Positions 3,447 to 40,662 of a stretch of DNA of 64,000 nucleotides are shown here, piece by piece. The notes below the pieces were generated by a model that was given only the letters and a program-made list of their open reading frames with translations, was not told the DNA's origin and made no database searches. Each line of letters begins with the position of its first letter. The first letter of the stretch is position 1. A program made the position numbers and the translations under genes. The DNA is from Shigella phage SP21535: sequence record PQ615101; one strand, written 5' to 3'.

Positions 3447-5012
3447 TTAGATACCTTTAACATATACACGTCTAAAGTAAGCGTTTTTACCAAGGCTATT
3501 CAGAATAGAAGGCATACCGCTCTGGATGCGAGAAGCCGGAGCCTGAGCAGCGGATTCTGCAAATGGGTTGATACCGATACCGTAACGAGTTTTGAATCCC
3601 ATTACCGGTTGGAAGTTCTTCGGATCGGAACCACGCAGCGGAGTCAGAGCTACATATGGAGCATAGTAAATACCAGCATCCATTTCGTTCGGACCTTTAT
3701 AACCTACAGTGAAATAATCCTGTTTAGCATACTGGTCGATATATACACGGTATTTACCACCCAGAACACCAGCAAATACTGACTTGGTAGTATCAGTGTT
3801 AAAGCCGGTAGCCAGACCCTGTGCAGCATAAGAAATGCCGGTATCAACTGAAGCCAGAACGTTAACTACGTTACGGGAAGCGATAATGAAGTTACCTTCG
3901 CCGCGACCAGTCTGACGAGCAATTTCAACTGCTTCTTTGTCAATCTGGAACAACAGAGCTTTAAAGGATTCACCCGCCCAGCGAGCACCACGAATATCAA
4001 TCGGATCCTGGAAGTCAAATACACCAGCTTTAGAACCTGGAGTCAGGGTCATACCAGATTTACCAACCTGAGCTGAGTAGTTAATCCAATCAACAACTTC
4101 ACGGTTGATTTCCAGCATGATTTCTGTAGCCAGAATACCAGACAGTTCAGCATCAGCATCCATACCGTGAACAGCGCGGAGGTCTTGTGCTAATTCGATA
4201 GAGTAAGCAGCTTTCAGCTGGCGAGATTTAGCTTCGATAACTTGTTTATCGATACGGAAGCCCATTTCATTCCATGGGTTATCGGTAGAACCGTTGAAAC
4301 TTTCCTGAAGTTCAGCGATAGAAGTAGCCATACCTTCAGCGATTTCTACCAGTGCACCAGCTTCCATTTGTTTCTTAATTTCAGCATCTAATTTAGCTGC
4401 ATCAGTTGCGCTTGAACTAATTGTTACTACAGCGGAAGCTTGCAGATACACAGTACCAGTGTCCTGGAAGAAGTGAGTATAGATATCACCTACAACGGTT
4501 TGTGTGCTAGCAGCCAGAGCTGTGAATTTCTTAGCAGCACCCTGACCAGAGAACATTGCATCTGGACCATACATTGGGTGGAATGCTTCTTTAGCACCGG
4601 AAGCGATTGGGTCTTTACCGTATACTGCGCGCATTGCGAATACCTGGCCAGTCGGGCTGTTCATCGGCTGAACACCGCAAATATCGAAAGCAATCAGGTT
4701 AGGAATAGCACGACGTACCATACCCATAACAGCTGGGCCAATCTGAGTTACTGCGCCAGAAGTCTGACCTGCAGCGATGTTGGTAGCATTGTAACCGTGG
4801 TCACCACCGATTTCAGCTTCTGTTAAGAAAGAACCGAATGCCTGAGCAATTTTTTCGTCTTTATATTCCGGAGCTGTCTGGAAATCTTTTTCCTGGTTTT
4901 CAAAGATTTTAGCGATAATCGCTTGTTTGCTATTAGCAATTTCCGGTAAACCTTCACCTTCCAGTAATGGCTTCCATTTGTTCAAAAGTTCAGCTTTAGT
5001 TTTGATAGTCAT
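3447..5012 (-). CDS. 23: major capsid protein gp23
   Basis: 521 aa; sequence recognised as T4 gp23 precursor. Confidence 0.95.
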   Translation of the reverse strand: MTIKTKAELLNKWKPLLEGEGLPEIANSKQAIIAKIFENQEKDFQTAPEYKDEKIAQAFGSFLTEAEIGGDHGYNATNIAAGQTSGAVTQIGPAVMGMVRRAIPNLIAFDICGVQPMNSPTGQVFAMRAVYGKDPIASGAKEAFHPMYGPDAMFSGQGAAKKFTALAASTQTVVGDIYTHFFQDTGTVYLQASAVVTISSSATDAAKLDAEIKKQMEAGALVEIAEGMATSIAELQESFNGSTDNPWNEMGFRIDKQVIEAKSRQLKAAYSIELAQDLRAVHGMDADAELSGILATEIMLEINREVVDWINYSAQVGKSGMTLTPGSKAGVFDFQDPIDIRGARWAGESFKALLFQIDKEAVEIARQTGRGEGNFIIASRNVVNVLASVDTGISYAAQGLATGFNTDTTKSVFAGVLGGKYRVYIDQYAKQDYFTVGYKGPNEMDAGIYYAPYVALTPLRGSDPKNFQPVMGFKTRYGIGINPFAESAAQAPASRIQSGMPSILNSLGKNAYFRRVYVKGI

Positions 5013-23830: not shown

Positions 23831-24835
23831 TTAAAATGTAAACAGAATATTGATTTCTTCTGTTTGATCCATTGCCATAATAATAGGTGGCCTATTTTCC
23901 ATATAAATCATTTCGCCCGAATGCCTCATTAAATCTTCCGGATCATAATAATCCTTTTCAGCTTTAACGTTTGGGTCATTTGGATGAGCTTTAGCTTCAA
24001 GAGGATTCGTGATTATTGATATTTGTCTAAATCCTTTATTTCCCGGCAATGCAGCTTCCGGAAAATAAACTGAATCTAAATATGCTTTAAAACGGATAGT
24101 ATTTGCCTTAACACGGTAAATTAATCCAAAATCATCTTGTTGCCAAGTGAGGTTATCTTCATACCCCCATCTAGTCGGGTCTTCTTTTAATTCTTCCGGC
24201 CAAGGAACCACGATATATTCATTCGTGCATCTATTTATAGATACATCAGGTGGAATCTCAAAAAGATATTCCCAAACATATCCGTCGCCGGGTTCGATTG
24301 TTCCTTCCGCGTCTCCTCGACCTTCAGGAGGAGTCATTGACCTAACAGAAGGAGTCCATTTTCCACCTAACTTAAGGCATTCATCCTTATTAGTTAAAGA
24401 CTCAATTGAACACATTCCTGTGTCAGGAACATCTAAACAACGATATACTAACCAGCCTGCGCCTGATTCAGTAGCATTGTAAGGAGCTGAGTTACACACT
24501 ACAATATCGTTAATTCTAAATGTGTATGGATCTGGATATCTAGTATCTCCCCAATCTCGACGAGGAATAACTGCATCAAGCATAGATGGAAGAACCTTTA
24601 CAGTTCCCATCATATGCGTCCACATGTCAGTTACGCCTAATACAGAATCAGTAGGATAAGGTGGAGCAAAGCCCACCTCATTTTCATTTGATGACCACGG
24701 TTCTGATCTTCCAAATGTGATAAAGATAGTGTTTTTATCCGGACCACTTCCAATTGAATTATAAAAATTCAACATTTTTTCTGTTCTAAATTTTGAAGTA
24801 ACTATCGCACGATAGATAACACTTGAATCATTCAT
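23831..24835 (-). CDS. 8: baseplate wedge protein gp8
   Basis: 334 aa; gene order. Confidence 0.9.
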   Translation of the reverse strand: MNDSSVIYRAIVTSKFRTEKMLNFYNSIGSGPDKNTIFITFGRSEPWSSNENEVGFAPPYPTDSVLGVTDMWTHMMGTVKVLPSMLDAVIPRRDWGDTRYPDPYTFRINDIVVCNSAPYNATESGAGWLVYRCLDVPDTGMCSIESLTNKDECLKLGGKWTPSVRSMTPPEGRGDAEGTIEPGDGYVWEYLFEIPPDVSINRCTNEYIVVPWPEELKEDPTRWGYEDNLTWQQDDFGLIYRVKANTIRFKAYLDSVYFPEAALPGNKGFRQISIITNPLEAKAHPNDPNVKAEKDYYDPEDLMRHSGEMIYMENRPPIIMAMDQTEEINILFTF

Positions 24836-27800
24836 CTATTTTAACCTGTGTTGGATTTTCAGGGTCTCTTGGATTTCCTATATTATCTTTTAGACGTTTA
24901 TTAACTAAATCCCTAAATTGTGCAAATGTTGTTCCAGATGCATCGAATAAAGGACTCATTAATTTACGTCGTTCAGACGGCAATTGACCTTGAAATATTG
25001 AATTATTATTTTCAGCATTATAGTCATCAGGAAGAGGATATTTTACACCAGCCATTGGGCCAGGTTCATAAATTGCTTCGCCTGTTACTGAATCATGCTC
25101 AATTTCGCCAGTTGGAGTCAATTTAGCTACTCTATCAGCATATTCAGTAGGCAATCCAGAATCCCATTTATAGTTTTTGTATTTATTAATTATAGTCTCT
25201 GTATGTTTAAGAGTTAAACCAACATTAATAAACATCGTTAAAAGAGTAATTGCTATAAATCCAAATCCTACTGGATGAACAAAACGAATAACGTCAGATT
25301 TCCAGCGGGAAGAAGGTAAATTGGATTTAATTTTCATTACATAATATGATCTACTTCTATTAATATAGTCTATGTTATTTTGAAGCAAATCCTTTCCTTT
25401 AACCCCGCGAATAATTTCGCCTTCGAAACTAGGGAGTCTTTCTGCTTTAACTTCTTGACCGGCAATTAATCTTCCCAAAAGATTATGAATAGTTACGGTC
25501 CATTGCAATTTACCATTAGAATAGCTTCTTTCTATATAAGTAACATTACATCTTCCTGTAGCTGTATAAATCGTTTGTCCTACTAAGTCTTCGGTCAAAG
25601 AATCAGATTGAACGATTATATCATATTCAGTACCAGCCCCAGATTCAATTTCAATTTCAACTTCTTCATTATAAAGAACTTTAAAAAGAAATTTGTATGA
25701 TGCTTCAATTCCTTTAGTGGAATAAAAATCATAGCTACGTGATTCAAAAAATCTTGCAACAGCATCGCGTTTGTCAGCATTTAAATAAATGTTTCTTTTA
25801 TATATCTCTGACCACAAATATTCCCACGCATGCTCTTCTCGCGGATATTGGTTACGAATTAAATTTCGTAAATTATTATACTGAGTTCCATATCCATCAG
25901 AAAGATACTGAATATATGCTTCGCAGAATGCCTCAAAATTAGAATCCTGTAGCAAATAAGAATCAGGCATCATTGTGCCAATCAATGGTCTTAAATCAGG
26001 ATCAGCTAATCCATGCTCTTCTTCCGGGGACCAAGGAGTTTCACGCTCTTGGTTTTGTAAAAATGCTTTTAAAAATATTCCAGTTGGCTTCCAAATTATT
26101 TCAACCGTGTCTCTCACTCGATAGTTAAAATCATAGTAAGAAATTATTTCACCAGAAGACTTATAAAAAAGCATCCCAGACGCATATTTTTTAAATCCCG
26201 TGAATTTAACATTTGGCATTACTATCGTGCAATCACCATCATCCCAATATTCATGAACTAATCTATCTGGCGATGTTTCCGGAATATTTTCTATAACTTT
26301 AGTGTATTTTAAATCAGCATAAACTACTACAGCTCTATCAGAGTTGTTTATCCAACAGCGTGTGTTAGATTTTTTAGACCAGTTAAAGAATGGTTCTGCA
26401 TAGTATTTCATCGGCTGAGGCGTAAAAGTTTCCCAATCAGATTTTTCGTCTGCTATAAATGCCATCATATGATAATGCTTATCAGCTAGCCATTCACGAG
26501 GAAATTCATATTTAACAGCACCGATTAACTGATATTTCGTTGCAGTTTCAGGGTCATTAACAATGTTATCACTTAAAAATTTAAAATTACTCGAAGACAG
26601 AGAAACTAATTTACCATCAGTTGACATATTCGCATACCCTGGTTGAATGCGTCTTCTTTCTTCTTCAGTGTTGCCAAAAACTCTTTTCCACGTTTTTGTG
26701 TCGTGATTTAAAACATATATTCCTTTATCAGCAGAATCAATTATTTTTGATGTTCTAGGATTAGCATTTAATGTTTCAACTTCACCAATAATAAGAGCAA
26801 AAACTTTATCACCGATAGAATCCATTTTATAGCATACTGCTTTAGGATTTCCGGTTATAGTCATTGTATCAGGCTCAAAAAGCCTTTCCGAATATGTTGG
26901 AGATAATGGATCAGAATCTATAGGTGCATTACTCGTTTTTATGTATCTAACTTTATCTCTGGCGACAACGTAAATGTAATCATCGGTGCAAGTAATAGCT
27001 TCTGCAATGCGATATACATTCGCTGGCAAAGTTGCGTAAGTGGCAAAAATTTCTACATCAAATCCTAAATGTAATTGGTCGCCAAGTTTAGCGAATGTTA
27101 TATCTTGAGAACTAAATCTGACATCATCAGCTGACCATCTAACATCAGTAGATTTGCGGCCATAGAAAATCTTGTCGTATCCTAGAACGTATGTTGTGTT
27201 CGCAGATTGGTAATATACTGTCTTAGATAAAGGATATCCTACGCGGTCATTGAAGAGCTTTACAGCTTTCCAGGTTTGTCCTTTATCATTGGATACTTTA
27301 ACTACAGGTTGATAACGCTCAAAAAGATATAGAATCCCTTCTGATTCCATCAAATAAACTCGGTTAATATCCTTACATACTTGCTGAATAGAACCCTGTA
27401 TTTCATGGTACTCATTTTCACCAATAATAAAATTACTTATTGATGAAACATCAACATATGATGGGCTGAACTGAAATGATTCATTCATCAATGCAGCCAT
27501 TATAGTGTCATTATTAAAATTGACATAATCAGAATTATTAAGAGTAAATTTTTCCTGAATGAATTTATTAGCTAATTGCATTTCAATCATGTTTTGAAAT
27601 GTATAAGCGTTTGTAGCAAAAGTTTCAAACTCTTCGGTATAAATCCAATCAGACTGCTCAAAATCCTGCGCAGCTGTAGCTACTCTAATAATGTACGATG
27701 TCAATGGATTAGCATTATCAAAAAAGAAGCTGTTATTTGCAGTATATCCTAAGTTAATCCATCTGTATTGATTACTCGGGAGATTTTCCCCCGAGTTTGT

Positions 27801-27926
27801 TTTTGTCTCAGCGATTTCTACAAAATAGTAGAAATTAGCACCAACGTCATCCCAGCGTACTTGCACCTGATTTGCGGATAACTTGGAAATTCTGAGACTA
27901 GTGACTGAAGGTGCTTTTACTGTCAT
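24828..27926 (-). CDS. 7: baseplate wedge protein gp7
   Basis: 1032 aa; gene order. Confidence 0.9.
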   Translation of the reverse strand: MTVKAPSVTSLRISKLSANQVQVRWDDVGANFYYFVEIAETKTNSGENLPSNQYRWINLGYTANNSFFFDNANPLTSYIIRVATAAQDFEQSDWIYTEEFETFATNAYTFQNMIEMQLANKFIQEKFTLNNSDYVNFNNDTIMAALMNESFQFSPSYVDVSSISNFIIGENEYHEIQGSIQQVCKDINRVYLMESEGILYLFERYQPVVKVSNDKGQTWKAVKLFNDRVGYPLSKTVYYQSANTTYVLGYDKIFYGRKSTDVRWSADDVRFSSQDITFAKLGDQLHLGFDVEIFATYATLPANVYRIAEAITCTDDYIYVVARDKVRYIKTSNAPIDSDPLSPTYSERLFEPDTMTITGNPKAVCYKMDSIGDKVFALIIGEVETLNANPRTSKIIDSADKGIYVLNHDTKTWKRVFGNTEEERRRIQPGYANMSTDGKLVSLSSSNFKFLSDNIVNDPETATKYQLIGAVKYEFPREWLADKHYHMMAFIADEKSDWETFTPQPMKYYAEPFFNWSKKSNTRCWINNSDRAVVVYADLKYTKVIENIPETSPDRLVHEYWDDGDCTIVMPNVKFTGFKKYASGMLFYKSSGEIISYYDFNYRVRDTVEIIWKPTGIFLKAFLQNQERETPWSPEEEHGLADPDLRPLIGTMMPDSYLLQDSNFEAFCEAYIQYLSDGYGTQYNNLRNLIRNQYPREEHAWEYLWSEIYKRNIYLNADKRDAVARFFESRSYDFYSTKGIEASYKFLFKVLYNEEVEIEIESGAGTEYDIIVQSDSLTEDLVGQTIYTATGRCNVTYIERSYSNGKLQWTVTIHNLLGRLIAGQEVKAERLPSFEGEIIRGVKGKDLLQNNIDYINRSRSYYVMKIKSNLPSSRWKSDVIRFVHPVGFGFIAITLLTMFINVGLTLKHTETIINKYKNYKWDSGLPTEYADRVAKLTPTGEIEHDSVTGEAIYEPGPMAGVKYPLPDDYNAENNNSIFQGQLPSERRKLMSPLFDASGTTFAQFRDLVNKRLKDNIGNPRDPENPTQVKIDE

Positions 27927-29905
27927 TGTGATATAGGCTCCAAATCGATAGTTAAGTATTGTGGACGTAAGTCATTTTCAAATACAATCAGTGAACCATC
28001 GCGAGTAAAGATAACATCATCGGTTGGGTCAGAATATAATTCAATAGTCTGAACCTCAAATTTATCGGATGTTAAATTAATTTTAGCGATATTCCAATAA
28101 ATCATGTCAGCTGGATAATTTATTTCACCGATAACATAATATTTGTCACGTCCATCAGAATTTGCTAATTTGTTAAAATCGTTGCCTGTATACGGCTGAA
28201 TGTTTTCATTTTCTGTAACATCACCCGAAGCAAATGGACCAATAATAACTTTACCGATTCCTTTAGAATCTCGGTCTGTTGATACTATGCGAACGTCATA
28301 TAATACATCTTCTTCTAAACCAGTATCAGGATTTACAACCTTTCGTCCGGAATTAAATGAAAACGTATTAGATTCCATAGAACGATCTTTTATTTGATTA
28401 TTGTATTTAATACCTGCTTCAGGCGTTTTATAGAAGTTTTGTACTTCACGAACAATTTGAATTGTCGCTGATGAACCAATGATAGAATGATCTGCATCAT
28501 CTACATATGTCAACATCTTAGATTTAGCGAAAGATGAGTTAAAAATTTCTACGTCTTCGGTATAATAACGATCAATTTTATCAATTATTTGACCTTCAAG
28601 CCACTGTTCGGATTCTTGCAGCTTATTTAAAGCATATGTGACTTTTAAATTAGTCTTAATAAAAAGATAATTAGGAGAAATAATTGATGGCGTAATAGGA
28701 GCTAAATTATAGTCTTTGAGATAATTTTTAATATCTTCGCGCTGTACAGTAGTTAAATATAGTCCCGATTTAGGTTTAGCAGCAATAAATGCATAACCAG
28801 GTTTAGTAGAATCAGTGAAAGTCTGAACTGCCTGAATAATAGAACCAAATCTCTCTGAAACGAATGTATCATAGTCAGTCGCAGTTACGCAGCGTTGCTG
28901 GGTTTCACGTTTAATAGTACCCAATTCGCGAATACGTTCAATATCTTCTGGATCACCGCCGCCATCTGCTCCAACAAAATCTGGGTCATCGTTTGGGTTT
29001 TCATTAATATTGATGACAGTTATATTTGTTAATGTATCCGCGTATGAAAATCCGACTGCACCATTCGCATCTGCACCGTTAGTGCTGATGTACTCAATGA
29101 CAATCGTAGAGTTCTGAGTAGGTTTAAGACCTCCAATATAATTAGCGGTCAATGCTCCTTCTGCCGCGTTAACAGAAATCTCACCTTCACCAAAATAAAA
29201 TTCAGTATTTCCATCAATAGTTTCACGCATATAGTAAATCGTTGATGTTGAACCAGCATGAACCATTGACTTTCTCGTCCAGTTAATCCATTCCGCTCCA
29301 TCAACATATAATTTAACCTGGTTTCTATCAATATTTTTATCATAAATGATAATAGGTGTTAATTTATCATAAATGATTTCAGTTCTTACTATACGTCCCT
29401 GAGCTAATTTTAAACGCGGAAAATATTGGTTATTTTTATCGCGAATAGCAATAACATCTTCGGTAGATACAAAGTTATAAGGATTAACTGAAGTATCTTT
29501 TGCATATGCTAAAAAGCGAGTACCACGAGGAATAGTAATGTAATTTCTATTCAATGCGTCGGTACATGTTAACATAATTTCGGTCTGCGCAGCGGATTTT
29601 GAAGTAGGTAAATATCCGTTATCTTGTGCAGCTTGAACAACTGAACTTCGTAAGTTAGCAGTACGCATAAAGCTTTCATACACGGCAGCATTACCAAATT
29701 GTTGAATGTACAATGTATTATAAGCCAAAAGGTCACACAGAACGTTTAATCTTGAGCCTTCAAAATCATAATCCAAAAATTCATTTTGGCCATTAAGCCA
29801 TTCAATGAGGTTTTGTTTTATTTCAGCAAACGTACCCCCGACGAATATCTCGGGAATAGCATTTGCTGTTCTTGTTAATTGATAATTTACAGGGGTATTT
29901 GCCAT
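27923..29905 (-). CDS. 6: baseplate wedge protein gp6
   Basis: 660 aa; gene order. Confidence 0.9.
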   Translation of the reverse strand: MANTPVNYQLTRTANAIPEIFVGGTFAEIKQNLIEWLNGQNEFLDYDFEGSRLNVLCDLLAYNTLYIQQFGNAAVYESFMRTANLRSSVVQAAQDNGYLPTSKSAAQTEIMLTCTDALNRNYITIPRGTRFLAYAKDTSVNPYNFVSTEDVIAIRDKNNQYFPRLKLAQGRIVRTEIIYDKLTPIIIYDKNIDRNQVKLYVDGAEWINWTRKSMVHAGSTSTIYYMRETIDGNTEFYFGEGEISVNAAEGALTANYIGGLKPTQNSTIVIEYISTNGADANGAVGFSYADTLTNITVININENPNDDPDFVGADGGGDPEDIERIRELGTIKRETQQRCVTATDYDTFVSERFGSIIQAVQTFTDSTKPGYAFIAAKPKSGLYLTTVQREDIKNYLKDYNLAPITPSIISPNYLFIKTNLKVTYALNKLQESEQWLEGQIIDKIDRYYTEDVEIFNSSFAKSKMLTYVDDADHSIIGSSATIQIVREVQNFYKTPEAGIKYNNQIKDRSMESNTFSFNSGRKVVNPDTGLEEDVLYDVRIVSTDRDSKGIGKVIIGPFASGDVTENENIQPYTGNDFNKLANSDGRDKYYVIGEINYPADMIYWNIAKINLTSDKFEVQTIELYSDPTDDVIFTRDGSLIVFENDLRPQYLTIDLEPISQ

Positions 29906-29913
29906 TTTAAATC

Positions 29914-30207
29914 CTATTTAATGAATACTTTAGATGATGCCTGAGCCACAGTATCACCGCATGATATTGGATCAGCCATTTGAACAGCTTTCTTTCCAGT
30001 GACATATACCTTAGAAGTTCTGGGTTGTGTCACTCCGCCATGTGTTTCATATGGCTTTTTAATTTCTGTATGTTCTGTAATTGGATCACCTGCTACGAGA
30101 ACAGCAATTCCTCCAGTGAATACTTTACTTTGTGTAGCATTCACAACTGTTGGAGGCCACGCTTCATGGCCAGCAGTAACACACTTATCATAACTTAATC
30201 CTGACAT
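29914..30207 (-). CDS. 5.4: baseplate spike tip protein gp5.4 (PAAR-like)
   Basis: 97 aa; gene order. Confidence 0.75.
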
Positions 30208-30785
30208 TTATAATACCCCGCTTTAACTCGCCCCTTTAAGGTACTATAATTTATATTAAGAGCTTTAGCTGCGATTTTAATACTTTTATATAAAACGCCG
30301 TTGATAATAATAGATTTAGCATTAGGGGCTATTTTGCCATACATTGGGTTATTGGCGCCGCACATCTTCGGAGTTTTACCTCTAGGCCCTCTAGGCCCTC
30401 TTTTTCTAGACGATTTAATGCTAATTTTCAATCTAGTTTCACGCGAATGAGATTTACCGTAAAATCCATTTTTAACACCCGCTGTGCTATGTTTTGGGAA
30501 GCCACCGATACCACCTAGTTTCATATTATAAGTTTTCTCAGATTTAACAAATTCCTCTGTGACTATTTCTGCCTCTGCGTCATACATAGCTTTTTCAGAT
30601 TCAAAGAATTTTATAATATGCTTATAAAAATTATCTATGCCATATTTTTTAATGGCATTTTTAATGGCAACGCCAGAACCCATATACCCATCATCCAAAT
30701 TTGAAGTTTTATGGACACCTACATAAATTTTTCCCGTTGTTTTATTAGTTATTGAATACAAATAAAAATATTTATGGCCTCTCAT
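30195..30785 (-). CDS. GIY-YIG homing endonuclease (Seg family, SegB paralog)
   Basis: [18 protein letters not shown] ... YMGSG motifs; NUMOD-like repeats; C-terminal HTH-like region. Confidence 0.8.
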
Positions 30786-31308
30786 ACACGTAGCTTCTCA
30801 ATTTATTAGCCCAACGACTCCAATTTCCAACTATAGTTTTAGTATAATTTTTAACGAGAGTTTTTCTTACTGGAGCAGGAGGATCTGTTGGTTCAGTAGT
30901 ATCAGAAGATGACCTAGAATTACTGCCAGAACCCCCAGATTCACTTTGTTCTTGGTAGTCATATATTAATGTTACTTCATAAGTGAATGTTTTCTGGAGG
31001 TTTTGAGGAGCTTTCCATAAATATAACTGAGTATTAGAATCAGTTGGAAGGTCTTCCCATGAAGCAGCAGTTTTAAATTCATTATCTAAACGATATTTCA
31101 ATGCGTCATTTCCAAATCCAAATACAGATTCATACGTTCCATATAAACGATTTTCTTCTACTAAAACCCCAGGAGTTTCTTCGTAACTAGTTATATTTAT
31201 AGATACTAACGTTTCACCTGTTTCTAATTGAGCGGTAAAGGTGACGTCGATAGAAGAACCTTCCATGGATTCTCCTAAATCAGCGCTCATTGGAAGTATA
31301 TTAGCCAA
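30772..31308 (-). CDS. hypothetical protein (gp5.1-like position)
   Basis: 178-aa ORF between the two GIY-YIG genes; Ser/Gly-rich linker. Confidence 0.5.
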   Translation of the reverse strand: MANILPMSADLGESMEGSSIDVTFTAQLETGETLVSINITSYEETPGVLVEENRLYGTYESVFGFGNDALKYRLDNEFKTAASWEDLPTDSNTQLYLWKAPQNLQKTFTYEVTLIYDYQEQSESGGSGSNSRSSSDTTEPTDPPAPVRKTLVKNYTKTIVGNWSRWANKLRSYVYERP

Positions 31309-32167
31309 TTGTTGAATTCTCTAATGATGTAAATTTATAATCACATTTTTTCAAAGCTTTTAAAATTGCGTTATAACTTACATCCGGGAGGTCATGTTCA
31401 ATTGCTTTTTCTCTAAACCATTTGTATTTCTGTGGATGTGGTTTTCCCAAAACCTCCCAAAGTTTTTTGACTTTTTCTATACTAATCCAAGGTTCAACTG
31501 ATCTTAGTTTTTTATTTCTAGCATCTAATCTCGATTTTCTTATCAAAGGATCATTCCATGATTGTTTCGTTCCTTCTATTTTTCCTGGATGATTGATTAA
31601 TTTATTTCTGTATTCATCGGATTTCCATAAAGATTTAACGGTATTAGAAATACGAATTTTTAATGTTGGGTCATTTTCAAAAGCAGTTTTCATCGCATTA
31701 CTCATTTTCTTTCGATATTCTGGTGATGCGCATCTTTCTTTGTTTATTTTAGATATTTTCTCTGAAAATTCTTTAGTTGACGTTGATTTAGCTAATGCCT
31801 TCAATTGAGCTTTCCTATATTCAGGATTAGACCACATTCTCTTCAAATCTTCGGATGAAAAACCATCACCGCCGGATTTTATATTGGTACATAGAATGTC
31901 AGATGATTTATATTTCGAAATCCAATACCTTTCTCTTAAATTAAGAATTTCATAAGTAGAAACAAATTCAATTATTTCAAAATCTATTTTATAACCAGGT
32001 TTATTGCGTATCTTTTTAATATAATCACCGGAACCTATATACTTGTCATTTTCTAAATCAAAATATCTAGATTCATGTTTACCAATATAAACACGTACTA
32101 ATCCTTTCGGATTAGTAACGGTTGTTTTATATATGTATCTAAATTGAACAGTGTTAGATTTTTTCAT
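31301..32167 (-). CDS. GIY-YIG homing endonuclease with W-x-x-P-E-x-R repeat region
   Basis: FRYIYKTT...RVYIGKH...YIGSG motifs; repeated WSNPEYRK/WKSDEYRN/WNDPLIRK units. Confidence 0.75.
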   Translation of the reverse strand: MKKSNTVQFRYIYKTTVTNPKGLVRVYIGKHESRYFDLENDKYIGSGDYIKKIRNKPGYKIDFEIIEFVSTYEILNLRERYWISKYKSSDILCTNIKSGGDGFSSEDLKRMWSNPEYRKAQLKALAKSTSTKEFSEKISKINKERCASPEYRKKMSNAMKTAFENDPTLKIRISNTVKSLWKSDEYRNKLINHPGKIEGTKQSWNDPLIRKSRLDARNKKLRSVEPWISIEKVKKLWEVLGKPHPQKYKWFREKAIEHDLPDVSYNAILKALKKCDYKFTSLENSTIG

Positions 32168-32185
32168 AATTCACCTCTGAATTAT

Positions 32186-33916
32186 TTATAAACCTACGTC
32201 TATACGGCTACCATCAATTGTGTATTGACCAGATGAAATAGAACTCATAGATGCCATTTTTTCTGTCCAATCACCACCAACGTCCCAATCAACTGTCCCA
32301 GCAACTTTCCAAGAAAGATTTCCATTTACTGTATTAGTCTGGTTTCCTTCAACTAAAGTGGTAGCATCCCCTTTAACTGTAATGTCAGCATTACCTTCAA
32401 CTACAATAGTAACATTACCTTTAACTAGGATAGTTCCATTACCTTCAACTGTCTTAGTTTCATCGCCACGTACAAATATTGTATTGCTTCCATCTATTTG
32501 GTGGAGACGATTATCCATGTTGTAATAAATTTCTGACCCACCGACGTTAGTCTTTTTATCGCCAGCTACCAAAAAATTACCATCAGCATTTGTTATATCA
32601 TACAAATTATCAACAGTTTTTCTTGTTCTTCTTCCTGACGGTGATACTTCCTCATATGTTCCAGTCGGATGAACTAATCTGTATCGTTCTTGTCCCGGGG
32701 TATCGTCAAATTCCTGAATATGACCGCTTTCAGTTTCCATTGTGTGAACATACGGATATTCACCTTTATATGAAGAAACAGGTTCTTTAAATAAAATTCT
32801 CGAATCATTCGGAATAGGAGGGTCAGCTGGATCAGAAGACTTTGCTACAGCAGCAGCCATTGCTGACAAAGACCTAGCCGGTGTTTTCACTTCAATACCG
32901 TATGATTCCAAATTACCGGTAAGAATAATCATGGTAACACGGGATGCACGGCCTTTTGTTTGTTGATACCACAATGAATCACGACCAGCTTTATATGCTT
33001 TTTCCCAATCTCCGGCTAACATAGCAGTTAACATTGTGTTAAATTTAGCTACACCGCCAACACCCATTTGGAATGCCATATTTTCTAATGCCATTTGACG
33101 AGAACGATTAACTGCCTGCCAAACTGGGCCAACTTTAGAATGTGATTTAATGTCACGTTGCATATCAGCTAAATCACGTTCAAATAAAGTTACCGCTTCT
33201 TCCATTGTAATAGAACCTGGATTTCCGGTAATTTCACGACCAACTTGTTTTGATAAAACTTTATTAATTTGGGCCATATCACGAACTGGCTGCTTCATGA
33301 TAAGATGACCAATACCAATTGTCGGATATCCTTCGGTATCCCAATAAACTTTTAGTCTTAATCCTTCATCGCGGCGAAGCATTTCAGCCATTGACATATT
33401 TGGATTATCATCAGTTGGAATCTCTGATAGTGGTCTATCATCAGGATTTATCGCAGTGTCTAAATTACTATCTTGGATAATATTAGAAGACGAATCATAT
33501 CCTACTTCTCCGCCTTGGTTTAATACGTTAGTATCATTTCCTAGACGTCTAGGATACTGTCCAGTCGGGTCAGAAAATCCTTCAAGTCTATTAGGCTTTT
33601 CGCGAACTATTCCACCATACGTGCCAAGGACAATTCCGTTAGTTTTCCATTTGTCTAAAAAATGACCATAAACTCTAGTTCCTTCTACCGGTCCAGTAAC
33701 AGAACCTCCAATTCCAGACATTGCTGCAGAAGTTATAGGTTGAATAACTGACATCCATGGTAATTTATCAGTTGGAATACCCATTACATCGCCTTGCGCT
33801 CTTTGAGGTGGATGCAGACCAACCACACGAACACGAACACGACCTAATTTTAATGGGTCCATTCTATCTTCAACAACACCAACAAACCAGTTGAGGTTAT
33901 TACTTATCATTTCCAT
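32186..33916 (-). CDS. 5: baseplate hub + tail lysozyme gp5
   Basis: 576 aa; lysozyme-like GYPTIGIGHL segment; C-terminal VxGxxxxx beta-helix repeats. Confidence 0.9.
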   Translation of the reverse strand: MEMISNNLNWFVGVVEDRMDPLKLGRVRVRVVGLHPPQRAQGDVMGIPTDKLPWMSVIQPITSAAMSGIGGSVTGPVEGTRVYGHFLDKWKTNGIVLGTYGGIVREKPNRLEGFSDPTGQYPRRLGNDTNVLNQGGEVGYDSSSNIIQDSNLDTAINPDDRPLSEIPTDDNPNMSMAEMLRRDEGLRLKVYWDTEGYPTIGIGHLIMKQPVRDMAQINKVLSKQVGREITGNPGSITMEEAVTLFERDLADMQRDIKSHSKVGPVWQAVNRSRQMALENMAFQMGVGGVAKFNTMLTAMLAGDWEKAYKAGRDSLWYQQTKGRASRVTMIILTGNLESYGIEVKTPARSLSAMAAAVAKSSDPADPPIPNDSRILFKEPVSSYKGEYPYVHTMETESGHIQEFDDTPGQERYRLVHPTGTYEEVSPSGRRTRKTVDNLYDITNADGNFLVAGDKKTNVGGSEIYYNMDNRLHQIDGSNTIFVRGDETKTVEGNGTILVKGNVTIVVEGNADITVKGDATTLVEGNQTNTVNGNLSWKVAGTVDWDVGGDWTEKMASMSSISSGQYTIDGSRIDVGL

Positions 33917-39303: not shown

Positions 39304-39376
39304 TGGGAATTAGCCAAGTTGGTAAGGCATAGCACTTTGACTGCTAGATGCAAAGGTTCGAGTCCTTTATTCCCAG
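39304..39376 (+). tRNA. tRNA-Gln (anticodon TTG)
   Basis: Cloverleaf: acceptor TGGGAAT/ATTCCCA, anticodon loop CTTTGAC, T-arm GGTTCGAGTCC. Confidence 0.85.
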
Positions 39377-39377
39377 C

Positions 39378-39464
39378 GCGAGAATGGTCAAATTGGTAAA
39401 GGCACAGCACTTAAAATGCTGCGGAATGATTTCCTTGTGGGTTCGAGTCCCACTTCTCGTACCA
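39378..39464 (+). tRNA. tRNA-Leu (anticodon TAA), long variable arm, CCA encoded
   Basis: Acceptor GCGAGAA/TTCTCGT, anticodon loop CTTAAAA, T-arm GGTTCGAGTCC, 3' ACCA. Confidence 0.85.
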
Positions 39465-39470
39465 AAGTTT

Positions 39471-39542
<72 letters not shown>

Positions 39543-39554
39543 AAATTTAATTTA

Positions 39555-39628
39555 CTCCGTGTAGCTCAGTTTGGTAGAGCGTCTGCTTTGGGAGCAGAAT
39601 GTCGCAGGTTCAAATCCTGCCGCGGAGA
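39555..39628 (+). tRNA. tRNA-Pro (anticodon TGG)
   Basis: Acceptor CTCCGTG/CGCGGAG, anticodon loop TTTGGGA, T-arm GGTTCAAATCC. Confidence 0.85.
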
Positions 39629-39630
39629 CT

Positions 39631-39717
39631 GGAGGCGTGGCAGAGTGGTTTAATGCACCGGTCTTGAAAACCGGCAGTCGCTCCGGCGACTCATAGGTTC
39701 GAATCCTATCGCCTCCG
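39631..39717 (+). tRNA. tRNA-Ser (anticodon TGA), long variable arm
   Basis: Acceptor GGAGGCG/CGCCTCC, anticodon loop CTTGAAA, T-arm GGTTCGAATCC. Confidence 0.85.
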
Positions 39718-39724
39718 TAATTTC

Positions 39725-39797
39725 GCTGATTTAGCTCAGTAGGTAGAGCACCTCACTTGTAATGAGGACGTCGGCGGTTCGATTCCGTCAATCAGCA
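39725..39797 (+). tRNA. tRNA-Thr (anticodon TGT)
   Basis: Acceptor GCTGATT/AATCAGC, anticodon loop CTTGTAA, T-arm GGTTCGATTCC. Confidence 0.85.
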
Positions 39798-39803
39798 TAT
39801 CAA

Positions 39804-39875
39804 GGCCCTGTAGCTGGAAGGTTCAAGCAAGCGACTCATAATCGCCAGATGGTGGTTCAATTCCACCCAGGGCCA
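39804..39875 (+). tRNA. tRNA-Ile (anticodon CAT, presumably lysidine-modified) or tRNA-Met
   Basis: Acceptor GGCCCTG/CAGGGCC, anticodon loop CTCATAA, T-arm GGTTCAATTCC; T4-type phages carry a CAU-anticodon tRNA-Ile here. Confidence 0.75.
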
Positions 39876-39916
39876 TATTTTGGGAACATAAATACTCTTA
39901 GAAATAGGAGATATTT

Positions 39917-40582
39917 ATGTTCCATTACACTTATAAAATAACAAATAAAATTAATAATAAAATTTATATTGGTGTGCATTCTACCGAAAATTTAGATGAT
40001 GGATATATGGGTTCTGGTAAATTATTAAAAAGAGCCCAAGACAAGTATGGTATAGAAAATTTCTCTAAAGAAATATTAGAGTATTTTGATGATAAAGAAT
40101 CTATGCTTGAAGCCGAGAAAAATATTGTCACAGAAGAGTTTTTAAATAGACCAGATGTGTATAATTTAAAACTTGGCGGTGAAGGTGGATGGGACCATAT
40201 AAATATTCCTGGGATGCTAAACCAGAAGAAAGATGCTAGCTTAAAAGGAGCTAAATCGTTTAAATCACGTTTTGAAAATGATATTTTACTTCAAGAAAAA
40301 TATCGTAAAATTGGTTCAAATGTATTTAAACGTTTGTGGTCAACTCCTGAATACAAGGAAAAATTTTTAAATAATAGCAGATTTTTAAATAAGCATCATA
40401 CTCCTGAAACTATTAATAAAATGAAAGAAATTCACGCTAAAAATAATCACCAGAAAGGAGAAAAGAATTCCCAATTTGGTATGATGTGGATTCATTCATT
40501 AGATGAAAAAGTTTCTAAACGTATTAAGAAAACTGACCCAATTCCAGAAGGATGGTTTAAAGGTCGAAAAATGAAATTTTAA
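39917..40582 (+). CDS. segB: GIY-YIG homing endonuclease SegB
   Basis: 221 aa; FHYTYKITNKINNKIYIGVH...YMGSG; located between tRNA subclusters. Confidence 0.85.
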   Translation: MFHYTYKITNKINNKIYIGVHSTENLDDGYMGSGKLLKRAQDKYGIENFSKEILEYFDDKESMLEAEKNIVTEEFLNRPDVYNLKLGGEGGWDHINIPGMLNQKKDASLKGAKSFKSRFENDILLQEKYRKIGSNVFKRLWSTPEYKEKFLNNSRFLNKHHTPETINKMKEIHAKNNHQKGEKNSQFGMMWIHSLDEKVSKRIKKTDPIPEGWFKGRKMKF

Positions 40583-40585
40583 TTA

Positions 40586-40662
<77 letters not shown>

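Follow-up and report, generated by a model that had tools for sequence, protein, structure and literature searches.

The interval between genes 5 and 5.4 of Shigella phage SP21535 (PQ615101) is best explained as carrying two independent free-standing GIY-YIG homing-endonuclease cassettes, one at each junction of gene 5.1, a reading to which we assign, including the mechanism proposed below, a probability of about 75%. In the 64,000-nucleotide stretch analyzed (here, the window), the two open reading frames (ORFs) concerned, at 30195 to 30785 and 31301 to 32167, are genuine, lie on the minus strand, and encode 196 and 288 amino acids (aa). We refer to the first as segC and to the second as ORF288. 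A first-pass annotation had described both as GIY-YIG genes bracketing a hypothetical gene between genes 5 and 5.4, and both points stand: the bracketed gene is 5.1, and the two ORFs are of the Seg type, segC by Pfam and ORF288 by PHROG_314, the 1LN0 profile, and hhalign.

Two insertions around gene 5.1

All genes of the interval are on the minus strand. Gene 5 (32186 to 33916) encodes the 576-aa baseplate hub/tail lysozyme and is identified by its ORF and by the gp5 annotation at the homologous place in T4T, T6, and LH2; as host gene of the ORF288 cassette, it has an altered 3' end. Gene 5.1 (30772 to 31266), the conserved gene that separates the two cassettes, encodes 164 aa counted from its ATG and matches PHROG_1168 (unknown function; E = 2e-73), while an automatic ORF listing runs further, to a TTG at 31308. 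The downstream flank is gene 5.4 (29914 to 30207), which encodes the PAAR spike-tip protein (Pfam PAAR_motif, E = 9e-10) and is annotated as 5.4 in T4T. Three other Tevenvirinae genera, Jiaodavirus, Winklervirus, and Dhakavirus, show the insert-free ancestral order at this locus. For Tequatrovirus, we propose that the ancestral order was 5/5.1/5.4/6 and that both cassettes would have been inserted later. An Rfam scan of 29500 to 32700 found no family, matches to sigma-70 promoters were not enriched (12 versus 11.2 expected), and further repeats in the interval were short and chance-like.

On sequence identity, domain content, and junctions, the ORF at 30195 to 30785 is SegC itself, so segC is the name for its annotation. 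Its product, with GIY-YIG, NUMOD3, and I-TevI-type DNA-binding domains, is the ortholog of T4 SegC (97% nucleotide and 95% aa identity over the full length, with 187 of 196 residues identical) and passes the Pfam cutoffs for SegE_GIY-YIG (27.0 bits; cutoff, 25) and NUMOD3 (32.4; cutoff, 20.4), the same Pfam content as in T4. The segC annotation is found at the homologous gene in T4T, RB55, and RB59, and the junctions match those of T4T exactly, placing the site between 5.1 and 5.4. As in T4, the gene overlaps its neighbors, its start by 14 nt with the end of 5.1 and its end by 13 nt with the start of 5.4. Compared with the empty site of segC-less phages, which reads GGCAATAAATGTCAGG, the insertion (30206 to 30775) adds 564 bp net and is bounded by a 6-bp direct repeat, ATAAAT (30770 to 30775 and 30206 to 30211). 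The window nevertheless holds a distinct allele, which differs from T4 segC at 15 nt, starts two codons later, and is joined to a 5.1 3' end of the T6/T2 type, from which that of T4 has diverged.

T4 segC has been described as free-standing, mobile, promoterless, located between 5.1 and 5.3, and overlapping the upstream ORF (PMC2988022). The target of SegC is its own insertion junction, the 5.1/5.4 junction, and site-specific cleavage of the segC-less junction as well as preferential inheritance are listed for the T4 enzyme in Table 1 of the same work (PMC2988022). In the window, segC likewise has no promoter of its own and is probably translationally coupled to 5.1.

The first-pass annotation had taken this ORF for a close paralog of SegB. 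The shared motifs are real, but the 52% identity to the SegB of the window (39908 to 40579) is confined to the N-terminal 101 aa, the catalytic domain, and the 95% aa identity makes the ORF an ortholog of T4 SegC. SegB, the homing endonuclease of the T4 tRNA region, differs in its locus and in a C-terminal region unrelated to that of SegC, and is 26% identical to ORF288.

ORF288 as a Seg-type nuclease gene

We identified ORF288 (31301 to 32167, minus strand) as a T6-type, Seg-like GIY-YIG endonuclease gene from profiles, hhalign, fold, and alignment. Single-sequence Pfam searches with the whole protein and with three segments gave no GIY-YIG match even at E ≤ 10, only a sub-threshold GerD match, and the original GIY-YIG call must therefore have rested on motifs. 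This miss is attributable to the limited sensitivity of single-sequence searches, since the profile and fold tests were positive. The protein matches PHROG_314, "homing endonuclease," at E = 1e-25; a profile built from its homologs finds 1LN0, the catalytic domain of I-TevI, at E = 2e-6; hhalign relates it to SegC with 98.7% probability; and among 46 remote homologs, 11 match SegE_GIY-YIG and 8 match GIY-YIG. NCBIfam returned a weak TIGR01453 match only (18.9 bits; cutoff, 56), and phmmer searches of PDB sequences with SegC or ORF288 returned nothing meaningful. The structure prediction is usable for the N-terminal part, which is modeled with the beta-beta-alpha-beta-alpha GIY-YIG fold; the full-length AF2 model was poor (pLDDT, 64), and Foldseek found nothing in the PDB at E ≤ 0.001. 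Residues 1 to 103 form the catalytic domain, residues 104 to 216 hold four NUMOD3-like repeats, and residues 225 to 288 are a C-terminal region assigned with low confidence. From this sequence evidence, we infer nuclease activity.

The catalytic motifs align with those of I-TevI. Both motif tyrosines, Y13 (YIY) and Y27 (VYIG) of ORF288 and Y10 (YLY) and Y21 (IYVG) of SegC, are invariant in 16 aligned Seg proteins and correspond to I-TevI Y6 and Y17. The same holds for E79 and N95 of ORF288 and E71 and N87 of SegC, which align to I-TevI Glu75 and Asn90. Loss of catalytic Arg or Glu residues had been named beforehand as a possible mark of decay. Both proteins retain Glu and Asn; opposite I-TevI Arg27, a gapped sequence alignment without structural superposition places His in ORF288 (H31), SegC (H25), and SegB (H20). 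Across the 16 family members this position is His in 12 and Lys or Ser in the remainder. Activity is listed for both SegB and SegC (PMC2988022), so the His that ORF288 shares with them is probably a trait of the clade rather than a sign of decay.

The repeats noted in the first reading of ORF288 are real, but the motif given for them, W-x-x-P-[ED]-x-R-x-K, matches nowhere, and there are four copies rather than three. They follow the pattern [WC]-x-x-[PD]-[EL]-[YI]-R, at residues 112, 146, 181, and 204, and none of 20,000 shuffles yielded even two copies. Nor is the DNA-binding region as distinct as had been thought: SegB carries the same motif as WSTPEYK, and hhalign places one copy, ASPEYRKKMS, on the NUMOD3 segment of SegC. 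The repeat region itself gave no NUMOD3 (PF07460) match at E ≤ 10, the best match being GerD (21.9 bits; cutoff, 29.5), and NUMOD3-positive homologs align over it. We suggest that the repeats plausibly act in a NUMOD3-like manner, without formal membership in that family.

ORF288 is under purifying selection, with dN/dS values of 0.092 against F2 and 0.05 against T6 (0.104 for gene 5), and none of the 32 records that cover it has a truncated copy. The same gene, 99% identical in aa sequence and at the same gene 5/5.1 site, is present in T6 as T6ncORF142 (AXN58183.1), and in Shigella phage vB_SsoM_113 it is annotated as a putative Seg-like homing endonuclease. The searched literature yielded no functional study or cleavage report on T6ncORF142/ORF288. 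Its annotation should read Seg-like GIY-YIG homing endonuclease instead of "hypothetical protein."

The altered end of gene 5 and a proposed homing mechanism

The ORF288 cassette adds 888 bp net within the final codons of gene 5. Where the window has 901 nt, the empty site of T4 has 13 nt, and the boundaries are defined to the single nucleotide. The gene stands alone between conserved genes, with no intron or intein, and its presence/absence pattern and boundaries are those of a free-standing homing gene. In T4, gene 5 ends in GGA TCG AGG ATT GAC ATT GGC TAA; in the window, the end (32186 to 32212, minus strand) is recoded to GGT AGC CGT ATA GAC GTA GGT TTA TAA (G S R I D V G L stop). This recoded end is found in all ORF288-carrying alleles examined (the window, Sso113, F2, and L020), and its substitutions are clustered in ~20 nt beside the insertion, the preceding 60 nt being identical to T4. 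The empty, T4-type end is at least 99% identical over the 141-nt junction in 470 records, and its last seven codons (TCG AGG ATT GAC ATT GGC TAA) recur unchanged in the two phages checked from Gaprivervirus and Dhakavirus; in an unclassified Enterobacter phage, two of the seven differ. Both empty sites are absent from the entire window with up to 3 mismatches permitted.

The cassette also carries putative expression signals. The T4 late-promoter consensus TATAAATA (32183 to 32190, minus strand) is positioned 16 nt ahead of the ORF288 ATG and shares nucleotides with the added Leu and stop codons of gene 5; the window holds 22 copies of the motif where chance alone would give 10.1, and we treat its promoter function as predicted. 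It is kept, with the recoded end, in all three diverged cassette alleles, including F2 and L020. A Shine-Dalgarno-like GAGGTGA (32171 to 32177, minus strand) precedes the ATG by 3 nt and reads GAGGTGA in L020 and GAGGTAA in F2. At its other end, ORF288 terminates in ATT GGC TAA (31301 to 31309, minus strand), which by alignment to the T4 empty site is how gene 5 originally ended, its final two codons plus the stop (AAT GGC TAA in L020). An RNA structure upstream of ORF288 that would sequester the ribosome-binding site was not supported, the fold being no better than those of shuffles (z = -1.15).

Within the 5' coding part, at codons 17 to 24, lies a perfect 9-bp stem with a 4-nt loop, UACUAAUCC GAAA GGAUUAGUA, followed by CGUGUUUAUAUU (32096 to 32117, minus strand), which was flagged as terminator-like. 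Three of the nine pairs are changed on both sides across diverged alleles, with 97% of cells paired. This covariation is based on four sequences because searches for additional, more divergent alleles of ORF288 were unsuccessful: IMG/VR gave one 99% copy, and JGI metagenomes gave only distant Seg-like proteins. Two other free-standing endonuclease genes, mobE and segF, are described as having intrinsic terminators early in their coding sequences (PMC2988022), and the conserved stem resembles these in position, although its U-tract is poor, above all in the F2 allele. We consider it a candidate internal attenuator or terminator; both this role and the timing of ORF288 expression are predictions from the motifs.

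We propose the following mechanism for homing. In a mixed infection, the nuclease would cut the empty allele of a cassette-less phage, and T4 recombination-dependent repair would then copy the cassette off the donor genome. For ORF288, we predict the target to be TCGAGGATTGACATTGGCTAA, the strongly conserved sequence with which gene 5 ends, and the target model would place the cut near TCGAGGATTGAC^ATTGGCTAA, sparing the occupied site. The cassette would bring the recoded gene 5 end, the late-promoter motif, and its own ribosome-binding site, and would read out via the old gene 5 stop. A carrier would be protected in that the insertion splits the site, and the ORF288 cassette would also recode its upstream half.

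The T6-type cassette might be more than this, namely, a self-contained "gene-end replacement" homing element in which a ~20-nt gene 5 target is attacked, the recoded end protects the carrier, the Leu and stop codons create the late promoter, and the hairpin attenuator balances nuclease dosage against read-through into the baseplate genes. We put this forward tentatively, as possible but short of probable. The proposed target is nearly invariant, lies in the essential spike gene 5, and is conserved across several Tevenvirinae genera. If true, a free-standing Seg gene would have adopted the intron-like strategy of splitting its own site. The closest comparison is I-TevI of the T4 td intron, which shares the modular layout (catalytic domain, then extended DNA-binding region), has a late-promoter motif directly upstream, and, provided that the predicted ORF288 target is right, likewise splits its target by its insertion. 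ORF288 differs in lying outside an intron, lacking a zinc finger, having a linker of four WxxPEYR-type repeats, and carrying His opposite Arg27. It adds to the small T-even Seg set a candidate with a testable predicted target, immunity through recoding and splitting, and a regulatory hairpin.

Two other accounts of ORF288 bear on this mechanism. The enzyme may be active but cut at a distance, in gene 5 elsewhere, in 5.1, or further away, the recoded end being an insertion scar only; we regard this as a serious but rather unlikely alternative. The usual distance between a free-standing T4 endonuclease gene and its cleavage site is hundreds to thousands of bp (PMC2988022), so a target at the insertion point would be atypical. 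Moreover, TCG to AGC and AGG to CGT cannot be reached by single synonymous steps, which fits an old import from a diverged lineage, and the unrelated cassette-free phage MY742 has AGC at the same Ser codon; the recoded end could be a relic of the founding exchange with a diverged donor, with no role in immunity. On the other hand, SegC, 0.5 kb away, is reported to target its own insertion junction (PMC2988022), so site-splitting does occur among Seg enzymes, the empty site is unusually conserved, and the substitutions are confined to the ~20 nt by the insertion. That ORF288 is instead a decaying, inactive remnant is suggested by the missing Pfam GIY-YIG match, the lack of Arg at the R27-aligned position, a KYG motif altered to KPGY, and two small insertions in the catalytic domain. 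We reject this very improbable reading on dN/dS (0.05 to 0.09 over dS values up to about 1) and motif conservation: Y13, Y27, E79, and N95 are invariant, the His-for-Arg exchange is common to SegB and SegC, the gene is intact in every covering record, and the promoter and Shine-Dalgarno motifs are kept in three diverged alleles.

Distribution and origin of the double carrier

T4 has segC alone at this locus, as the first-pass annotation had it, so one of the two genes is additional relative to T4 and the pair does not occupy identical positions there. The additional gene is not new, since T6 ("seg-like hypothetical protein; T6ncORF142") and about 30 further sequenced relatives have it at the same gene 5/5.1 site. 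T6 in turn lacks segC, whereas the window has both. Among about 495 close relatives, ~36 carry segC and ~30 to 32 carry ORF288, which is absent from about 460; four carry both, versus 2.2 expected if markers at ~7% and ~6% assort independently. These four fall into two haplotype groups, and the pair must therefore have been put together at least twice. All four presence/absence combinations occur, 5.1 haplotypes are shuffled, and the ORF288 site is occupied in three diverged backbones. The proposal that the locus is a recombination hot spot is weakly supported: the combinations and the shuffling fit it, but the double-carrier count agrees with independent assortment, and three other genera have no insert here. 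We found no paper on the origin of T4_ev151. The pairing of segC with the T6 seg-like gene is rare yet ordinary biology, in line with the usual behavior of mobile nuclease genes in T-even phages.

Under the homing mechanism, a double carrier would be the outcome of a T4-type genome meeting a T6-type genome; if gene-end replacement holds, each type would target the other at sites 0.5 kb apart, and the process would end in the double carrier. With two reciprocal homing systems at this spacing, T4 × T6-type crosses would suit the study of competing gene drives and co-conversion tracts. Plain crossing-over in the 495 bp of gene 5.1 homology between the sites could also yield double carriers from T4-type and T6-type parents, and the near-expected count and the shuffling of 5.1 haplotypes relative to either cassette favor it. 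We doubt that it acted without homing. In the lineage of the window, CJY920, and LH2, the switch from T6/T2-type 5.1 to segC comes no more than a few nt from the edge of the insert, which break-initiated repair fits better than a random crossover, and preferential inheritance of SegC has been reported (PMC2988022); both processes may operate together. Because no cassette-linked flanking haplotype is visible beyond the recoded codons, recent co-conversion stays a possibility only.

It is improbable that one or both nucleases are kept mainly for phage benefit, through competitor exclusion or break-induced segmental amplification of nearby or distant genes, rather than for selfish spread. T6 SegB promotes amplification of anti-defense loci (PMC13096335), a precedent for such a benefit; ORF288 is under strong purifying selection, and its divergence (dS, 0.99) is comparable to that of the host backbone (1.17 for 5.1 and 1.6 for gene 5). 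However, the locus shows no sign of amplifiable cargo, and either gene occurs in just ~6 to 7% of close relatives, unlike a generally useful gene.

Gene content between genes 5 and 6

The window is a T4-like (Tequatrovirus) genome whose minus strand bears the baseplate module. Open reading frames and the annotation of homologous records place gp7 at 24828-27926, gp6 at 27923-29905, 5.1 at 30772-31266 and gp5 at 32186-33916, all on the minus strand; 5.4 (PAAR; 29914-30207, minus strand) was assigned in the same way, with an additional domain search. The first-pass annotation described two GIY-YIG genes in this interval, and we found both, a 196-amino-acid (aa) ORF at 30195-30785 and a 288-aa ORF (here ORF288) at 31301-32167, each on the minus strand. 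That observation was essentially correct; its interpretation was half right.

The 196-aa ORF is SegC. The full-length protein shares 95% identity with T4 SegC, and in Pfam it passes SegE_GIY-YIG and NUMOD3 and nearly passes I-TevI_DNA-bd. Of a 2.6-kb query across the interval, 65% aligned with T4T, RB55 and RB59 (97%), and the aligned part takes in the annotated segC; by pairwise BLAST, T4 lacks only window 31310-32210. The gene had been called a SegB paralog; the motifs shared with SegB are real but confined to the N-terminal 101 residues (52%). With the SegB ortholog itself (39908-40579, plus strand), the Seg-type GIY-YIG genes of the window number three. This ortholog lies at T4's tRNA-cluster position, between a tRNA with anticodon CAT (39804-39875) and tRNA-Arg (40586-40662), with eight tRNA genes around it (39304-40662).

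According to a published review (PMC2988022), segC is a mobile GIY-YIG gene of the free-standing type that lies between 5.1 and 5.3 and targets this insertion junction; it has no promoter and overlaps the ORF upstream of it. Measured against Shigella phage vB_SsoM_113, a relative without segC, the insertion adds 564 bp net; the 6-bp repeat ATAAAT bounds it, the empty site being GGCAATAAATGTCAGG. Within segC, a scan flagged a 7-bp hairpin (8-nt loop) as terminator-like; it is overlapped by a 12-nt tandem duplication (TGCCATTAAAAA twice, AIKN-AIKK; 30637-30669, minus strand). T4 has the identical sequence. In T4 (T4T), the final ~20 nt of 5.1 next to segC are diverged, with about 8 substitutions and a protein ending in ...KYAYARP. 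At 30770-30800, compared with T4T and T6-type sequences, the window's segC adjoins a T6/T2-type 5.1 end (...SYVYERP), and T4's flank divergence is therefore not needed for segC carriage.

A T6-type Seg-like gene with a repeat module

ORF288 corresponds to a T6-type Seg-like gene, uncharacterised although annotated before. T4 lacks it and has segC alone at this locus, so the expectation that at least one gene was additional to T4 holds, and the pair is not T4's own arrangement. The gene occupies the same place in T6, vB_SsoM_113, ACG-C40, several Yersinia phages and others, and at least 80% of it is covered in 32 records (29 at ≥95% identity, three at about 82%). It is annotated as "seg-like hypothetical protein; T6ncORF142" in T6 and as a putative Seg-like homing endonuclease in vB_SsoM_113.

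Although a Pfam search of ORF288 returned no nuclease domain even at E≤10, its proposed GIY-YIG module was recovered by other routes. ORF288 matches PHROG_314 "homing endonuclease" (1e-25), a profile built from 13 database homologs matches the I-TevI catalytic domain (E 2e-6), and hhalign pairs it with SegC at 98.7% probability. An exhaustive phmmer search found 2074 relatives; SegE_GIY-YIG was present in 11 and GIY-YIG in 8 of the 46 that were sampled from the top of this list. ORF288 is thus a predicted nuclease.

Decay, of which loss of the catalytic Arg or Glu would be a sign, is very unlikely. Residues Y13, Y27, E79 and N95 are invariant in 16/16 aligned Seg proteins, SegB and SegC included. 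ORF288, SegC and SegB all have His where I-TevI has Arg27 in the alignment; SegB and SegC are reported to be active, and the missing Arg is therefore probably a clade trait rather than a sign of decay. Selection points the same way: the dN/dS of ORF288 is 0.05 against T6 and 0.092 against the diverged allele in F2, compared with 0.104 for gene 5 over the latter pair.

The three W-x-x-P-E/D-x-R-x-K repeats claimed for ORF288 match nowhere exactly, but four copies of a related motif, [WC]xx[PD][EL][YI]R, are present at residues 112, 146, 181 and 204; two or more copies occurred in 0/20000 shuffles. The underlying unit, of about 17 residues, has the consensus SxxxKxxWxxPEYRxK. Nor is this a DNA-binding region distinct to ORF288, as had been proposed: SegB has WSTPEYK, and homologs carry up to eight copies per protein, joined to N-terminal domains such as HNH, and also to REase_MTES_1575, Mom, SET, GNAT and GIY-YIG domains. 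Pfam NUMOD3 is not matched by the ORF288 repeats; in hhalign, one copy falls on the NUMOD3 segment of SegC. Judged from sequence, these would be NUMOD3-like DNA-contact repeats, and the WxxPEYRxK-type module may be worth describing as a DNA-binding repeat associated with nucleases. The module (residues 104-216) has no Pfam family of its own, and in 18/47 aligned proteins it matches Pfam GerD instead.

The ORF288 cassette and the gene 5 end

Where T4 has 13 nt, 901 nt are found in the window. Gene 5 ends GGA TCG AGG ATT GAC ATT GGC TAA in T4 and GGT AGC CGT ATA GAC GTA GGT TTA TAA in the window. The codons for G, S, R and I are changed synonymously and GAC (Asp) is kept, followed by an Ile-to-Val change, a synonymous Gly change and an added Leu codon. 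ORF288 ends ...ATT GGC TAA, which were originally the final two codons and the stop of gene 5. The cassette therefore lies inside the gene 5 end and brings a substitute end. The layout, together with the late-promoter motif described below, is the same in the 82%-identical F2 allele and in a third allele, L020 (78% aa identical; Dhakavirus-like backbone, public read assembly).

In 470 records, the empty T4-type junction is ≥99% identical across 141 nt. One Gaprivervirus and one Dhakavirus phage have the same last seven codons, and an unclassified Enterobacter phage differs at two of the seven (TCG to AGC, GAC to GAT), although synonymous sites just upstream vary. Neither the segC nor the ORF288 empty site occurs anywhere in the window. 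This pattern would be expected if the ORF288 nuclease recognised the conserved gene 5 end and the carrier allele were immune. It does not prove that target, because the cut sites of free-standing T4 nucleases are often distant from the nuclease gene (PMC2988022).

The extra TTA and the TAA stop, followed by ATA, create TATAAATA, the T4 late-promoter consensus (22 occurrences in the window, 10 expected by chance), with GAGGTGA and then ATG downstream. Codons 17-24 of ORF288 (V T N P K G L V; 32096-32117, minus strand) contain a 9-bp stem without mismatches, capped by a GAAA loop and flagged as terminator-like; the PKGL residues are an insertion relative to all distant homologs. The stem's three wobble positions pair mutually and change together in F2 and L020 (U-A to A-U once, U-A to C-G twice), leaving 97% of cells paired across four sequences. 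mobE and segF have intrinsic terminators in their 5' coding regions (PMC2988022), so the likeliest role for this candidate, which has a weak U-tract and was compared in a small sample of four sequences, would be an internal attenuator of the same kind.

Gene 5.1 contains another exact TATAAATA in its coding sequence (31194-31201, minus strand). Late transcription could start again there, past the ORF288 hairpin, and run toward segC, 5.4 and gene 6. In phage T2 (LC348380; locus 3825-4318), the annotated length of 5.1 is only 294 nt and the alignment has a 1-nt gap, which suggests a frameshift; gene 5.1 may be dispensable.

Occurrence and assembly of the segC-ORF288 pair

No insert is present in Jiaodavirus, Winklervirus and Dhakavirus phages, which keep a compact 5 / 5.1 / 5.4 / 6 order; this marks the cassettes as derived and as restricted to a limited group. 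Two independent homing cassettes are the most likely mechanism. The interval is matched at ≥95% identity by 495 records, of which about 36 have segC, about 30 have ORF288 and 4 have both (CJY920, LH2, T4_ev151 and Manna). About 2 double carriers would be expected if the two assorted independently, which means that the cassettes show neither attraction nor exclusion. The 5.1 haplotypes are shuffled relative to both cassettes. The proposed recombination hot spot is only weakly favoured.

By SNP patterns, the double carriers fall into two groups. The window, CJY920 and LH2 have a distinct segC allele joined to the T6/T2-type 5.1 3' end, with a switch of sequence type within a few nucleotides of the segC insert. 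T4_ev151 and Manna combine the T4 segC allele and T4's diverged 5.1 end with the T6 ORF288 allele. The pair was therefore assembled at least twice.
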